40,883 nucleotides of DNA, taken from the UHGV virus genome UHGV-0848487. One strand, 5' to 3'. Both the position numbers and the translations under genes were made by a program. The notes beneath the pieces are model-generated. The model saw only the letters and a program-made list of their open reading frames with translations, did no database searches and was not told the DNA's origin. Position 1 is the stretch's first letter. Each line of letters starts with the position of its first letter. Shown here in pieces: positions 27,690 to 40,211 of the stretch. Origin of the DNA: a virus.

Positions 27690-30644
27690 TTATTTATCTT
27701 CTAGTGCTGCCAGCCTCTTCTCGAACTCGCGCATCTTCTTACGCTGATAGGCAATCTCTATGAAGAACATCTGGTCCGCCCTAACCCCCCATCTGCCGCC
27801 GGGAGGGGATACTTGTACAGTCTGGCCATCTTCATCAATATCATACGCAGCTTCAATTGAGTCGTAGCACAAGAAAGCATATTTACAATCGGTAGAATCT
27901 TTCTCCATAAGCCCATGGTTGACCAAGATGTCTCGCACATCTTGGGCTATCACACCGAAGTGTATCCTTGCAGTGTCACCCTTGATTGCTAGGCTTTCAA
28001 GCCACTTAAAAGATATTACATGTATATCCTCCCATGCGGTAAGGAGTTGTCCCTCAATTTCCTCTTTGTTCGTCTTAAGTGTACCATCAGACGTGTTTAT
28101 CGTACCGGTGGCCGCGTACACCGTAGTCCACCTATTACTTGCCGAACCTAAAGACACTCGCGCGTCTAAGTAAGGAAGAAAATTGTTGTATGAGTAGAAG
28201 CCTCCTGACGCATACATAATAGCCCTGTTAGGCGTTGCATGGTTTGCCCCGTACAGTTGCAGCAACGCACCATCGGAACTGGATGCACCATCACCACCGC
28301 TAACTATCAGTCTTTGACCCGATGGGGTTTTAGTGGGGACTGTTTTTGAAATCAGCCCGTAATCACCATCAAACCGTGCACGCACGGCGGACTGTTGTGT
28401 ACCATCGTATTCCAGCCCCGTTACATGCAGGGAGTACACGCTTACATCATTGTCAAACGTTAAAGGTGCTTCTACATGGCGTACACCATCTACCCCCATG
28501 GCGACAGGTATTGTACGGTTAGGAGTTGCTCCGTATTTGAAATCACGTGATACGTACGGGTGGTCTTCAATCTTTATCCGGTAGCTATATAAGTCAGCCG
28601 GATGCCCATCATGTTTGTACCATAACCTCGCACTGTTATCCCCTATGCTCCAGGGAGAGAAGAAGTCTTCCCCACCAAAGATATAGTACAACCAGCCATC
28701 TTTAACACAGACCGAGCCGACGCCGACAGCAGAGTTAACGATATGACCCTGGTATATTTGGTCGGTAATATTAAACCACTGAACATCATCTAAAGATGAA
28801 GGCCAGGACGACACATTAACTTTGCACATAAAGGTCCTCGGATACGAACCTTCATAGCGGCTGTCCTGCTCGCCACCTTCCCACTCACCAAAGGCACGTT
28901 CTGTACCAAAGATATAGAGATAGTCACCTACTTTAGCGAACGGAAGATTGGAGTGATGTACATTGTTCGGAAATCGCAAGTAGCTCCAGTTTTGCCCAGA
29001 ATCGGTGCTCATCGCCAGTGTAGAGCCAGGGGAAGTAGGTAATGTGCCGCGTGTGGTAAGGTATAACACACCACCATAACTTTTCACGCACGGCTCAGAA
29101 GCGTTATCAGCGTATGCCTGAGCGACAGTGCGACGAACGAATACGCCTGGATTGTCATACACGTTACTAAAATACAAGACACCGAGACGCCGAGGGGACA
29201 CATCGCCGTTGTGATAGCCGACAGCGATAGTGTAGTTAACATCATCTATGACCGCAAAACTATGTGTCTCCGTGACACACAAATCAGCGTTAGTGGAGTA
29301 TGCTACCCCAGGCAATTCGGTAATTTCCCACGGGCTGTCCCAGAATCGCGTTGCGAAGTTCCAGGTAACACCCGCATTGTTTATGGTGGAACTCGCCGGG
29401 CTTGAGAGCGTAACAGTGAACGTATTTCGGTTAATTATAGACGAAACCGTCATATTACCCGATACGCCAGTTGCCGATGTATTAGAGAAGTTAACCGCAT
29501 CTCCTGCTTTTAGGCCATGATTTTCTATGACAATGGTAGCAGTAGTGGAGCCAGAACTAATAGTTATTCCGCCGGTTGGGTGTCTAAAATACGGCATTGG
29601 GCGTGACCAAAGTTCTGCCTTCTTCATCCGCATATTAGATAAGTAGCGGGTTTCTATAACTGCATATAATCGGTTGCCACACGTACCCATGCTCATGCAG
29701 TGGTAGTTAACTCTGTCCGTAGAAACACTAGCGTTATAGTCAGCATGGATTGGAGTCAACCACTCAGGCATTGACCAAGTCTGCCCGTCGTCACCAGAGC
29801 GAACCCAAGCTACATGTAAGTTTTGAACGCCATGTCGTTCGCCTGCCATAAACGGGGCGTAAATAACATGGTCGTAGACGAAAGTTTTATCCTGCGTCCA
29901 TGCGTTGTAGAACGGGGTATCCGTCACCTTAGTTAGTGAGCCGTTAAAGAAGCCATCAGCTACATAAGTAAGCGGTTGCCCGGCTACGCGCTCGTAAACG
30001 AATGCAGCATTCTTAAATTTACTAATGTCAGGTAATTGGGAAACTTTATAAGTCAAACCCCTGCCGTCTATAATCCAATTGTTGGGGGAAGCTGCTAATA
30101 CATTAAAAATAGATTGAGTATCATCAGTTACGCCGTCGCCCACGGCGCCCCATGCGCGCGGGTCGTATTCGTCCTTCCATCGCGCCACATGTAAATCTGG
30201 GTACAGAATTGCACCATTTACATCAGATATTTGCTGCCGCAGTATGACCGACCCGACAGGCTGCCACGCCCCATCTGCCACGCCACCGGTGGACTGCGGA
30301 GAAGATGACGCTGGGATAATTTTTGGTAGAGCACCCAACCAATAGTACCAATCCCCGTCACCGCCAGAGGACGACGGCCACAAAACTGCGGTGTTTCGGT
30401 CGTTAGCGGATAGTGTACCGCCTGACGTGAAATCAAAATCTGCCAGTTTAAAACCTGCGTCACGCAACACGGCGGGGAGTGTCTTCTGCGTCTGTCCAGT
30501 AACCTGATTTGTCGCGTAATCAATATCGGCACCACCGGCGACACCGCCGGATTTGCCAGTGATAACCTCGGCCTCGAAAATCTGATGTTTCTTGGCGGTT
30601 TGTAAATCCGCCAGGCTTAAAACGTCACCGCATCCGCTTGACAT
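27690..30644 (-). CDS. tailspike / tail fiber with sialidase-like beta-propeller (candidate endosialidase) and C-terminal intramolecular chaperone domain
   Basis: 984 aa; Asp-box motifs SGDDGQTW and STDSGQNW; C-terminal SDGTLK ... HFGVIAQDV region resembling autoproteolytic chaperone domains of endosialidases/tail fibers. Confidence 0.7.
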   Translation of the reverse strand: MSSGCGDVLSLADLQTAKKHQIFEAEVITGKSGGVAGGADIDYATNQVTGQTQKTLPAVLRDAGFKLADFDFTSGGTLSANDRNTAVLWPSSSGGDGDWYYWLGALPKIIPASSSPQSTGGVADGAWQPVGSVILRQQISDVNGAILYPDLHVARWKDEYDPRAWGAVGDGVTDDTQSIFNVLAASPNNWIIDGRGLTYKVSQLPDISKFKNAAFVYERVAGQPLTYVADGFFNGSLTKVTDTPFYNAWTQDKTFVYDHVIYAPFMAGERHGVQNLHVAWVRSGDDGQTWSMPEWLTPIHADYNASVSTDRVNYHCMSMGTCGNRLYAVIETRYLSNMRMKKAELWSRPMPYFRHPTGGITISSGSTTATIVIENHGLKAGDAVNFSNTSATGVSGNMTVSSIINRNTFTVTLSSPASSTINNAGVTWNFATRFWDSPWEITELPGVAYSTNADLCVTETHSFAVIDDVNYTIAVGYHNGDVSPRRLGVLYFSNVYDNPGVFVRRTVAQAYADNASEPCVKSYGGVLYLTTRGTLPTSPGSTLAMSTDSGQNWSYLRFPNNVHHSNLPFAKVGDYLYIFGTERAFGEWEGGEQDSRYEGSYPRTFMCKVNVSSWPSSLDDVQWFNITDQIYQGHIVNSAVGVGSVCVKDGWLYYIFGGEDFFSPWSIGDNSARLWYKHDGHPADLYSYRIKIEDHPYVSRDFKYGATPNRTIPVAMGVDGVRHVEAPLTFDNDVSVYSLHVTGLEYDGTQQSAVRARFDGDYGLISKTVPTKTPSGQRLIVSGGDGASSSDGALLQLYGANHATPNRAIMYASGGFYSYNNFLPYLDARVSLGSASNRWTTVYAATGTINTSDGTLKTNKEEIEGQLLTAWEDIHVISFKWLESLAIKGDTARIHFGVIAQDVRDILVNHGLMEKDSTDCKYAFLCYDSIEAAYDIDEDGQTVQVSPPGGRWGVRADQMFFIEIAYQRKKMREFEKRLAALEDK

Positions 30645-37761: not shown

Positions 37762-37791
37762 TCACTTACACCAACAATGAAGGGGTTTAAA

Positions 37792-37983
37792 ATGTCCAGT
37801 TTACCAGTTTCCTTAATTCTGTTTGCACTGCTCGCTTATTTCGCGCCTTTCCTGGTTGCGTACTTCCGTAACCATAAAGCGAAGTTAGCGATATTCATGG
37901 CTAATCTGTTTCTTGGTTGGGTTCTGCTGCCGTGGGTATTTATCTTAATCTGGGCGTGCAACTCGAATGTCAAAGAGAAGTGA
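37792..37983 (+). CDS. superinfection-immunity-like small membrane protein
   Basis: Preferred ATG 37792 after AAGGGG; AYFAPFLVAYFRNHKAKLAIFMANLFLGWVLLPWVFILIWA resembles the small superinfection immunity protein family pattern. Confidence 0.55.
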   Translation: MSSLPVSLILFALLAYFAPFLVAYFRNHKAKLAIFMANLFLGWVLLPWVFILIWACNSNVKEK

Positions 37984-38020
37984 GCTAGTATAGGACAAAT
38001 CCTAAACACGAGGAATAAGC

Positions 38021-39151
38021 ATGGCCAGGAAGAAAATAACCGACGAACAGTTACAGGAAGAATTGAACGCCGGTATGAAGAATATCGACATCGCCCGTAA
38101 ATACGGCATCTCCGACCGCGTTATTCGTATCCGTAAAGCGAAGCTGGCTAAGAAAGGTGTAGGCCACGGGCGTGACGTTAGTTACCTTGTACCGGACGGC
38201 TACAAGATTAAAGGAACGTCATCACTGGTGGATGAGTTTGGCAACACCAAGTTGCAATGGGTTAAGACCGACACCGATGCCGAACGTCAGGTTGAATTGA
38301 TGAAAGCCGTAATCGAAGGCATGAAGTCGGAGATTACACCAGTTGCACCTGTTAAAGCCGTTCGCGCCAAACGAGACGACAAGCTACTCAACCTTTACAC
38401 TGTGTCTGATTTCCATCTCGGTATGCTGGCCTGGGCTGACGAGAGCGGCGACGACTGGGACATGAAGATTGCGGAAGACCTGTTCTCCCGCTGGTTCGAC
38501 GCAGCGTTCCAGAAAGCACCGGATGCCGGAACAGGAGTTATTAATCTGCTGGGCGACCTTGCGCATTTCGATAGTCTGGACGCCGTTACACCTGCCAGTG
38601 GTCATGTTCTTGACGCTGACACCCGCTATCAGAAACTTGTACGCTACATGATTCGTATGGTCCGCCGTGTCATTGATATGGCTCTCGTTAAACATAAAAA
38701 TGTTCGCTTGCTTATCGTGCAAGGTAACCACGACGAAAGCGGAATGATTTGGTTAGCTGAGATGTTTAGTACGCTGTACGACAATGAGCCGCGTGTGTTC
38801 GTCGATACGTCGCCGGATGTTTACAAGATGGTGCAACACGGCAAAACGACGCTGTTCTTCCATCATGGGCATAAAGCACGATTCGACGCTATCGAACCGG
38901 TTATGATCGCCAAGTTCCGCAAAGCGTTCGGCGAGAGTGTTTACAGCTACGCCCACGTGGGTCACCTGCACCACCAAAAGATTGTAGAAAGCCGTAACAT
39001 GATTGTTGAGCAACACCGCACTCTCGCGGCTAAAGATGCATATGCCTCCCGCGGTGGGTGGATGTCGGGCCGCAGTGCAAACGTAATTACTTATAGCGCC
39101 GAATATGGCGAGGTCGCACGTTTAACTATTTCACCGGAGATGCTTGGATGA
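38021..39151 (+). CDS. HTH domain fused to calcineurin-like metallophosphoesterase
   Basis: N-terminal GMKNIDIARKYGISDRVIRIRK HTH-like; phosphoesterase motifs DFH, LLGDLAHFD, GNHDE, FHHGH, GHLHH in order. Confidence 0.7.
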   Translation: MARKKITDEQLQEELNAGMKNIDIARKYGISDRVIRIRKAKLAKKGVGHGRDVSYLVPDGYKIKGTSSLVDEFGNTKLQWVKTDTDAERQVELMKAVIEGMKSEITPVAPVKAVRAKRDDKLLNLYTVSDFHLGMLAWADESGDDWDMKIAEDLFSRWFDAAFQKAPDAGTGVINLLGDLAHFDSLDAVTPASGHVLDADTRYQKLVRYMIRMVRRVIDMALVKHKNVRLLIVQGNHDESGMIWLAEMFSTLYDNEPRVFVDTSPDVYKMVQHGKTTLFFHHGHKARFDAIEPVMIAKFRKAFGESVYSYAHVGHLHHQKIVESRNMIVEQHRTLAAKDAYASRGGWMSGRSANVITYSAEYGEVARLTISPEMLG

Positions 39152-39633
39152 AAGATATTGTGATTTTCGATTTAGACGGGACATTGGCAGATGGTACTCA
39201 TCGTTTACACCTGCTGCCGAAAGATAACTACGGCGAAACCTGTGCGTGGAAACCATTTAACATGGCGTGCAAAGACGATGCACCCATTAAAGATAACATC
39301 GAACTGTGTAACGCCCTTAATCGTCGCTATGCCGTTATTATCTTAACAGGCCGTAGTGATGACGCGGAAAAAGAAACCAGAATGTGGTTGCAGCGCCACC
39401 GCGTCGAATTTTATCAGTTAATCATGCGCAGCAAACACGACAACAGAAAAGACATCGTAATTAAAGAAGAGGTGTTGCGTGCTATTGGGCCGGAGAGAAT
39501 CTTGTGTGCATTCGACGACTCTCCAGCGGTAATAAAGCATTTCCGCGAACTCGGCATAACCACTCACGCAGTTACTGAATACGACTGTAACGGGAACTCT
39601 ACGCACTTAAAACCACATGGGAGTGATAAATAA
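39148..39633 (+). CDS. HAD-superfamily phosphatase
   Basis: Motif I FDLDGTL, motif II ILTGRS, motif IV FDDS; 161 aa. Confidence 0.7.
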   Translation: MKDIVIFDLDGTLADGTHRLHLLPKDNYGETCAWKPFNMACKDDAPIKDNIELCNALNRRYAVIILTGRSDDAEKETRMWLQRHRVEFYQLIMRSKHDNRKDIVIKEEVLRAIGPERILCAFDDSPAVIKHFRELGITTHAVTEYDCNGNSTHLKPHGSDK

Positions 39634-40187
39634 TGGCTAAGGTAATTATTCTTAATGGTCCTGCGGGCTGCGGGAAAGACACACTTGCTAGGGCGCTGGT
39701 AGAAATGGGCTTTGCGAAGGGTGTCGCCAGTTTCAAGAATCCGATGTTCAATATTGCTATGGCTGCGTTAGGCCAGGATGCTTACCGCGAGTTTCTCGAC
39801 GGCTACGACGACCGGGCGCGGAAAGAAAAGCCAGAGGGTTTCCTTAACGGGTTGTCTCGGCGTCAGTTCATGATTGCCATTTCCGAGCAATTCATTAAAC
39901 CGGTATTCGGTGATGATTATTTCGGTAAGTATCTTGCCGGAAACTTGCCCGACGGCGACGAAGTTTTTGTGGTGTCTGATGGCGGGTTCGCCAGCGAAGT
40001 AGCCCCTATCGTTGCCGCGGGGCATGATGTGAGAATCGTCCGCTTGCACAGAGACGGCCATACGTTTGAAGGGGACAGCCGCGGTTACCTGTACGATATT
40101 GATGGTGTAAAAGATTATGACACCTACATCATACCGGGTTACGTTAAATCGAACGCTATAGGCATTGCTTTAAGATTAGGCTTGTAA
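39633..40187 (+). CDS. P-loop nucleotide kinase (dNMP kinase-like; polynucleotide kinase not excluded)
   Basis: Walker A GPAGCGKDT resembling T4 gp1-type GKDT P-loop; 184 aa. Confidence 0.55.
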   Translation: MAKVIILNGPAGCGKDTLARALVEMGFAKGVASFKNPMFNIAMAALGQDAYREFLDGYDDRARKEKPEGFLNGLSRRQFMIAISEQFIKPVFGDDYFGKYLAGNLPDGDEVFVVSDGGFASEVAPIVAAGHDVRIVRLHRDGHTFEGDSRGYLYDIDGVKDYDTYIIPGYVKSNAIGIALRLGL

Positions 40188-40191
40188 GAAA

Positions 40192-40211
40192 AAGGCCCCA
40201 AACGGGGCCTT
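40192..40211. terminator. bidirectional intrinsic terminator at convergent junction
   Basis: AAGGCCCC-aaac-GGGGCCTT then agTTTTAT; same stem as 27666..27685 with complementary loop. Confidence 0.6.

Follow-up and report, generated by a model that had tools for sequence, protein, structure and literature searches.

A biochemically characterized phage enzyme of the type considered here is R1DNK, the deoxynucleoside monophosphate (dNMP) kinase (DNK) encoded as gp58 by Escherichia phage Rao1, whose sequence is given in the supplement of a study of the KomABC (Kongming) defence system (bioRxiv 10.1101/2024.12.20.629578). R1DNK phosphorylates dAMP, dGMP and dCMP efficiently, dTMP too, and dIMP weakly; it is inactivated by K15A, raises dADP/dATP in vivo and sets off Kongming via dITP, and deletion of its gene lowers dATP in infection (bioRxiv 10.1101/2024.12.20.629578). 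The DNKs of phages KarlJaspers and vB_KpnS-VAC2 likewise trigger Kongming (bioRxiv 10.1101/2024.12.20.629578). On the phosphatase side, Dmp of phage T5 is a proven deoxynucleoside-5′-monophosphatase with an experimentally essential D22 (bioRxiv 10.1101/2024.12.20.629578), and is both anti-Kongming and a modifier of Clover sensing, whereas the polynucleotide kinase-phosphatase (Pnkp) of phage T4 contains a phosphatase domain in which catalytic roles have been described for Asp165, Asp167, Ser211, Lys258 and Asp278 (PMC3592404). Here we examine the virus genome UHGV-0848487 (40,883 nucleotides, the whole of which we call the window), in which three consecutive genes encode a metallophosphoesterase (MPE) with a helix-turn-helix (HTH), a stand-alone phosphatase of the HAD superfamily, and a P-loop kinase (Table 1).

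We favour, with a probability of roughly 70%, the explanation that these genes form a mobile cassette handling DNA-derived deoxynucleotides, most probably from host DNA, in which a broad-specificity DNK is coupled to a phosphomonoesterase of the PNKP/Dmp fold and to the HTH-MPE protein, and which does not serve RNA end-healing. The MPE nuclease would, to judge by its fold, help to break DNA down to dNMPs; the kinase would convert these to deoxynucleoside diphosphates (dNDPs), as its Rao1 orthologue does, for host nucleoside diphosphate kinase to turn into triphosphates (dNTPs) for phage replication; and the HAD protein would take a phosphomonoester off a nucleotide-sized substrate, whether to trim the dNMP pool or to dispose of species unfit for the kinase. 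Phages T1 and TLS break down the DNA of their host and recycle its nucleotides by means of genes still to be identified (PMC11447400), and the role proposed for the cassette fits this host-DNA degradation and reuse in T1-like phages.

The three genes are tightly joined. The MPE reading frame and the HAD start overlap by 4 nt (ATGA), and the HAD and kinase genes by 1 nt within TAATG (TAA 39631-39633, ATG 39633-39635); since a GGAG-type Shine-Dalgarno sequence also precedes both the HAD and the kinase start, all three are almost certainly co-translated. An earlier sequence-only reading of this DNA had correctly described adjacent HAD and kinase genes with overlapping stop and start, next to an MPE gene, although the junction it quoted, ATGGCTAA, consists of the first kinase codons (ATG GCT AAG) and not of the overlap itself.

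Kinase and phosphatase families

By homology, the kinase is assigned to the R1DNK subfamily of phage DNKs. Its residues 1-172 show 50% identity to R1DNK (E 2e-60), and the two proteins share all motifs of the family; identity to the DNK of KarlJaspers is 52%, and to that of vB_KpnS-VAC2 49%. This likeness of 49-52% holds over the full length of proteins of the same size (184 aa) and includes the catalytic K15, within a Walker A motif at residues 9-17 (GPAGCGKDT; K15, D16), as well as the motifs NGPxGxGKDT, SFKxPMF, DDRxxKE, SDGGFxxE and RLHRxGxTFEGDSRxY. Across 49 aligned homologues, N8, P10, G14, K15, D16, K35, K64, R77, I81, S84, E85, K89, P90, G93, D116, G118, F119, E122, D148 and R150 are invariant, and all 20 are present in the window kinase. 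Because it is homologous to biochemically tested enzymes, we regard this protein as a dNMP kinase, and the ATP-dependent conversion of dNMPs to dNDPs shown for R1DNK is predicted for it as well.

Structural and profile comparisons place the family alongside T4 gp1 (PDB 1dek). An AlphaFold model of the kinase, built from the homologue alignment, reached a predicted local distance difference test (pLDDT) score of 94.2, and the window kinase has the two-domain fold of gp1, with a P-loop core and a helical nucleoside monophosphate (NMP)-binding domain. The kinase family and gp1 align end to end (collinear over 2-237, 172 columns, E 4e-5), share the GKD[T] P-loop, the DR motif and the D..E motif, and fall into the same PHROG, phrog_139 'deoxynucleoside monophosphate kinase' (3.8e-46 for the window kinase, 1.8e-65 for gp1). 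The two nevertheless differ: identity is 20%, gp1 has a ~50-residue insertion in its NMP domain, and the lid of the window kinase contains an additional invariant GDSR. R1DNK-type enzymes also accept dAMP and dCMP (bioRxiv 10.1101/2024.12.20.629578), on both of which gp1 is inactive according to the annotation of the T4 record. Curated Pfam models gave P-loop matches to the kinase below threshold only, and DNMK (PF21448), on which gp1 scores 3e-107, gave no match at E ≤ 1; because this model is narrower than the family, the miss lowers membership of Pfam DNMK but not of the DNK family, and we place the kinase outside the former and within the latter. The family is large: 6,973 cluster representatives match at E ≤ 1e-3, and homologues occur in 1,544 phage records.

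The phosphatase is assigned, on sequence grounds, to the PNKP/Dmp clade of HAD enzymes. It carries DLDGT at residues 8-12, matches Pfam HAD_PNKP (8e-20, 71.9 bits against a cut-off of 27.6) and phrog_415 (4.5e-66), aligns to T4 Pnkp residues 157-298 with a probability of 97.7% (E 2e-12), and has a predicted structure with a pLDDT of 90.4. Ten T4 Pnkp positions that we take to be catalytic or architectural have equivalents in the window protein (Pnkp/window: D165/D8, D167/D10, R176/R19, D187/D44, S211/T67, R213/R69, D254/D102, K258/K106, D277/D123, D278/D124), and the T4 Pnkp catalytic set (Asp165, Asp167, Ser211, Lys258, Asp277 and Asp278) is fully represented, which bears out the earlier identification of a Pnkp-type DxDGT phosphatase. 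The same ten positions recur in T5 Dmp (window/T5: D8/D22, D10/D24, R19/R33, D44/D57, T67/T86, R69/R88, D102/D136, K106/K140, D123/D160, D124/D161), the essential D22 thus corresponding to window D8. T5 Dmp itself matches phrog_415 over its full length (3.6e-57; T5 dmp, L009:124-858, minus strand) and has the DLDGT..HR and N.AC..D segments of the window protein. Because T5 Dmp has the same PHROG and the same catalytic residues, the fold cannot decide between a polynucleotide 3′-phosphatase and a mononucleotidase; the T4 Pnkp phosphatase also hydrolyses 3′-dNMPs, and likeness to the Pnkp fold then does not separate the two substrate classes.

Both relatives also differ from the window protein. 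T5 Dmp is a 244-aa protein with internal and C-terminal extensions, as against 161 aa here, and lacks equivalents of R94, D98 and R100; similarity between the two is confined to the N-terminal ~70 columns in profile alignment (E 8.6e-5) and to 49 aa in BLASTP (E 3e-3). In a BFVD fold search with the window protein, T5 Dmp was not among the best 50 matches, in a library that may not include it. T4 Pnkp (PDB 1ltq, 5uj0) and Capnocytophaga Pnkp1 (4xrp) have in common with it the catalytic residues and the R246/R94 equivalents, but the tetramer-interface residues and R279 of Pnkp are not conserved, and T4 Pnkp has a shorter form, or none, of the segment that follows motif I here (HRLxLLP...W..FN). 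We considered this segment (HR...W..FN) as evidence of a cap for small molecules and left it unused as ambiguous, the polynucleotide enzyme Pnkp1 having a similar PYNA..D.

Although labelled 'polynucleotide kinase', phrog_415 consists of HAD-only proteins without a kinase domain, T5 Dmp among them. For this reason, the labels 'polynucleotide kinase' and '3′-phosphatase, 5′-polynucleotide kinase' on many ~160-aa proteins in GenBank are annotation-transfer errors. This corrects a widespread annotation: the members of phrog_415 are phosphatases, and the product labelled 'ATP-binding protein' next to them is a dNMP kinase of the Kongming-triggering type.

The third protein, of 376 aa, matches phrog_704 'DNA repair exonuclease' (3.7e-167), and all five metal-binding motifs of MPEs (DxH, GD..H, GNHD, HxGH and GHxH) are present, as D130-x-H132, G178-D179..H182, G235-N-H-D238, H282-G283 (HxGH) and G314-H315-x-H317, which are invariant across 6 homologues. 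With their HAD_PNKP and PHROG scores, the domain assignments of the three proteins lie well outside what chance would give. An HTH precedes the MPE domain at the N-terminus, with a Pfam GerE match below cut-off. Other searches returned weaker matches: Pfam Metallophos_2 (21.6 bits, cut-off 27) and Metallophos (18.9 bits, cut-off 21.5) both fell below threshold, and a PDB profile search weakly recovered SbcD (E 0.2), while the depositor of the related phage fTaEco03 noted an HHpred match to PolD DP1 at 99.6%. T5 offers a parallel, in that its dmp gene shares an operon with the metallophosphatase nuclease A1 and the DNA-binding A2, an arrangement that may be functionally analogous to the HTH-MPE protein here; within this pre-early operon, A1 is sufficient for host DNA digestion. 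T5 also encodes a DNK but separates the expression of Dmp and DNK in time (bioRxiv 10.1101/2024.12.20.629578), unlike the co-translated pair of the window. We rejected the MPE as a homologue of T5 A1, and with it a T5-like A1/A2/Dmp module, as BLASTP and hhalign recovered only the GNHD motif (hhalign probability 0.6%).

Conservation of the three-gene cassette

The order MPE-HAD-DNK is the same in Rao1 gp56-gp57-gp58 (45%, 50% and 50% identity, respectively; L093:36693-39056). The two cassettes differ in setting: that of Rao1 lies in a T1-like genome, by the lysis cassette, and that of the window in a genome of the Guernseyvirinae/Kagunavirus type, antisense inside the tail-gene module. Rao1 gp57 is an intact HAD protein annotated as 'polynucleotide kinase', encoded immediately upstream of the Kongming-trigger kinase gp58; we found no mention of gp57 in the supplementary files of the Kongming study. 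The trio also stands next to the lysis cassette in Webervirus-like and other Drexlerviridae contigs. A pan-genome analysis of this family reported the exonuclease (the MPE) in 508/522 genomes and, directly downstream of it, a 'PNK' and a dNMP kinase as the commonest accessory genes; its authors read these two as providing extra nucleotide supply (PMC13164509).

In IMG/VR, we compared gene neighbourhoods at 80 loci with a kinase homologue, grouped into 25 clusters at 70% identity. A HAD gene lay upstream on the same strand in 9 of the 25, as the immediate neighbour (gap ≤54 bp) in 8, and an MPE gene was present as well in 6. In one lineage, represented by 3 contigs, phosphatase and kinase are fused into a 403-aa protein (P0349; L010:6001-7212) with the HAD domain N-terminal, a ~60-aa linker and the gp1-type kinase C-terminal; an MPE gene whose product is 69% identical to that of the window adjoins it, and an internal Met-Met ahead of the kinase domain makes separate translation possible. 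The HAD domain of this fusion has NRSS in place of the family NRKD, its equivalent of Pnkp Asp254 being Ser, and the adjoining MPE gene is followed by one for a PAPS_reduct protein and one for a Dam-type methyltransferase. In a separate case, a Rao1-like Drexlerviridae contig (L004:4438-4902, and L005:448-912), the HAD gene between the MPE gene and an intact kinase gene contains two in-frame stops (…LHLT*SW…, …LRSC*YT…) in two samples, and looks from its sequence like a decaying pseudogene.

Elsewhere, the partner or the replacement of the HAD gene is again a gene for a mononucleotide enzyme. In KP34-like podoviruses, including Dickeya phage BF25/12 and Shigella phage Buco (L094:5001-5863, L095:5001-5953), a 58-60%-identical HAD gene is closely preceded by an Endonuclease_7-family (endonuclease VII-like) gene and followed by a directly overlapping MazG-like dGTP_diPhyd_N gene, a pairing that suggests a two-step route from dNTP through dNMP to nucleoside. 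At another locus (L011:4341-6594), the position of the HAD gene between the MPE and kinase genes is taken by a DUF4406 gene, presumably nucleoside-2-deoxyribosyltransferase-like, with a dCMP deaminase gene alongside; in Aeromonas phage 4_4572 (NC_048773.1, near 29325-29813), the neighbour of the kinase homologue is a gene annotated as nucleoside 2-deoxyribosyltransferase. In both, the middle gene looks to have been replaced non-orthologously by another nucleotide-processing enzyme. The HAD gene is thus partnered with or replaced by mononucleotide enzymes in three unrelated contexts, namely DNK, MazG-like and DUF4406.

Alternative functions of the phosphatase

Several observations weigh against the deoxynucleotide-handling cassette that we favour. 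Taken as a whole, the HAD protein resembles T5 Dmp less than it does the T4 Pnkp phosphatase, with which it is 27% identical over 154 aa (E 1e-8). Its R94, invariant in the family, is the equivalent of Pnkp Arg246, which together with Arg279 was reportedly proposed, in work by Zhu et al. in 2007, to bind the penultimate phosphodiester of a polynucleotide; we give this point low weight, and the Arg279 equivalent is not kept, being Ser or Leu here (S125 in the window protein). The MPE is not specifically homologous to T5 A1, and it is a nuclease by prediction from its fold. In 16 of the 25 kinase clusters, comprising the more distant kinases, neither HAD nor MPE occurs within 5 kb. Co-translation of a phosphatase and a kinase that both act on dNMPs would moreover set up a futile cycle unless their specificities differ; the way out is either that the specificities are complementary or that the phosphatase acts on 3′-phosphates or DNA ends. 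Finally, Rao1 is restricted by Kongming, and its infection raises dAMP 2-3 fold (bioRxiv 10.1101/2024.12.20.629578). Because Rao1 is Kongming-sensitive and its dAMP rises despite an intact orthologous HAD protein, which does not confer the Dmp phenotype, this HAD subfamily is unlikely to be an efficient dAMP-depleting Dmp.

Some of these points would fit a polynucleotide 3′-phosphatase that cleans up DNA ends, either ahead of the MPE exonuclease or in support of replication and recombination, while the kinase salvages dNMPs independently, so that adjacency reflects a shared DNA-metabolism operon rather than a shared substrate. The greater overall proximity to the phosphatase domains of T4 Pnkp and Pnkp1, the invariant R94, the undepleted dAMP in Rao1, and the MPE gene as the more persistent partner in Drexlerviridae all speak for it. 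We nonetheless consider it unlikely, given that the second proposed phosphodiester ligand is replaced by Ser or Leu, that the tetramer interface of Pnkp is not conserved, and that mononucleotide enzymes recur as neighbours or replacements of the HAD gene.

A more speculative and rather improbable variant is that the phosphatase is neither a general dNMPase nor an end-healer, but selectively sanitises dNMP species that the kinase must not pass on. Its substrates might be N6-methyl-dAMP (m6dAMP), dIMP, further dNMPs that are modified or damaged, or 3′-phosphorylated nucleotides, arising as the cassette nuclease digests methylated host DNA, with the kinase directing nucleotides to reuse and the phosphatase to disposal. 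If true, this would resolve the futile cycle, hide danger signals from the m6dAMP-sensing systems Metis and PUA-Cal-HAD, and identify the long-sought genes for host-DNA degradation and reutilization in T1-like phages.

Less probable again is a counter-defence pair, in which the phosphatase would remove dNMP-type danger or precursor molecules (dAMP, dIMP, m6dAMP) made by the phage nuclease and kinase and would blunt sensing of the Kongming, Metis or PUA-Cal-HAD type, as T5 Dmp does for Kongming. DNKs of the R1DNK subfamily trigger Kongming, T5-type Dmps neutralize it, and Dmp homologues co-occur with DNKs (bioRxiv 10.1101/2024.12.20.629578). Metis and PUA-Cal-HAD sense m6dAMP from the breakdown of the host genome, the host HAD protein MisB detoxifies m6dAMP by dephosphorylation, and the window protein has its PHROG and catalytic residues in common with T5 Dmp. 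Rao1, however, is strongly restricted by Kongming although an orthologous HAD gene lies directly upstream of its DNK gene, and the validated anti-Kongming Dmps are of the long T5 type (215-244 aa), to which the window protein aligns over the N-terminal third only.

A split polynucleotide kinase-phosphatase that heals 5′-OH and 3′-phosphate (or 2′,3′-cyclic phosphate) ends of cleaved tRNA or DNA in the manner of T4 Pnkp, as the sequence-only reading had proposed, is very improbable: a bona fide Pnkp-type phosphatase domain, translationally coupled genes that are fused in one lineage, and 'polynucleotide kinase' labels in GenBank and PHROG would all accord with it, but the kinase aligns with T4 Pnkp over 28 P-loop columns only and is otherwise of the gp1/DNK fold and family, dNMP kinase activity has been demonstrated for its close homologue R1DNK, the phrog_415 label is an annotation-transfer artefact, the sole fusion found has its domains in the order opposite to that of Pnkp, and no ligase is annotated in fTaEco03, the closest annotated relative. 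In T4 Pnkp a single polypeptide contains both activities, its kinase domain coming first, whereas the window has separate reading frames and a kinase of another family. The pair is not of the Pnkp family; neither a Pnkp-type kinase domain, nor a single polypeptide, nor, in the fTaEco03 annotation, a ligase partner was found when each was sought. Alignment to T4 Pnkp and gp1, which the earlier reading had proposed as a check, thus upheld its view of the phosphatase, and upheld for the kinase its own hedge that the GKDT Walker A resembles T4 gp1, which proved the correct alternative.

Two further candidates were dropped. One was a Metis-type defence system (MPE plus HAD) carried by the phage: PADLOC returned no match, and the HAD protein is of the PNKP type and not HAD_2. 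A DNA hypermodification pathway of the 5-hydroxymethyldeoxyuridine (5-hmdU) DNA kinase type was set aside because no thymidylate-synthase-like or other modification gene is annotated in the genome except DNA methyltransferases.

Nothing in the deoxynucleotide-handling cassette is categorically new, as the genes had already been annotated, the kinase type had been characterized and the co-occurrence of DNK and Dmp had been noted (bioRxiv 10.1101/2024.12.20.629578). Its remaining interest lies in a Pnkp-fold phosphatase whose gene is tied to those of a dNMP kinase and a predicted MPE nuclease, with a possible role in recycling host DNA, and in what this may say about the handling of dNMP pools by host-DNA-recycling phages under nucleotide-sensing immunity (Kongming, Metis, PUA-Cal-HAD). 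Rao1 and K1G-like phages are tractable systems for the function of the HAD protein, and phage therapy candidates of the Kagunavirus group are predicted to be sensitive to E. coli carrying Kongming.

Gene layout and genomic context

By nucleotide identity, the window is a near-complete genome of a K1G-like E. coli siphophage (Kagunavirus, Guernseyvirinae). Around the locus, a 3.2-kb region has 98-99% identity with Escherichia phages vB_EcoS-UTI89UKE1, fTaEco03 and K1G, and 342 phage records match it. Existing GenBank labels in relatives include 'putative deoxynucleotide kinase' and 'kinase-phosphatase', across dozens of records. An NCBIfam scan gave generic matches only, all sub-threshold. In fTaEco03, which is 98.5% identical, no RNA or DNA ligase is annotated and every ORF (open reading frame) of ≥300 aa is otherwise assigned.

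Table 1. Features of the cassette and its borders in the window (strand + is the strand shown; a point marks a feature without strand).
Feature	Position	Strand	Basis and remarks
Small membrane protein, superinfection-immunity-like, first gene of the block	37777..37983	+	ORF; fTaEco03 homologue annotated as superinfection immunity protein; context only, outside the enzyme cassette proper
HTH and calcineurin-like metallophosphoesterase (MPE), predicted nuclease, 376 aa	38021..39151	+	phrog_704; MPE motifs; first enzyme of the trio
Stand-alone HAD (DxDGT) phosphatase, predicted PNKP/Dmp-type fold, 161 aa	39148..39633	+	HAD_PNKP; phrog_415
P-loop dNMP kinase (DNK), assigned to the R1DNK subfamily within gp1-like kinases, 184 aa	39633..40187	+	phrog_139; R1DNK homology
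Bidirectional intrinsic-terminator-like hairpin	40192..40211	.	8-bp stem, 6 GC pairs, T-rich tails on both strands

The hairpin marks the end of the cassette towards the convergent tail tube gene, and a weak promoter-like site lies at 37765-37793. The small membrane protein gave no PADLOC match. The block as a whole (37777-40211) sits antisense between the tail tube gene and the genes for the tail assembly chaperone and tape measure; in fTaEco03 it is likewise antisense to the flanking tail genes, between those for tail tube and tail assembly chaperone. The GC content of the HAD gene is 45.1%, compared with 51.1% for the window and 50-51% for neighbouring genes, and this lower value, together with the antisense placement, fits a moron-like accessory insertion. 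Among Salmonella phage records, 223 matched the region as DNA and 43 matched the kinase as protein; from this difference, most Jerseyvirus-type Guernseyvirinae seem to be without the kinase, and the make-up of the cassette varies within the subfamily.

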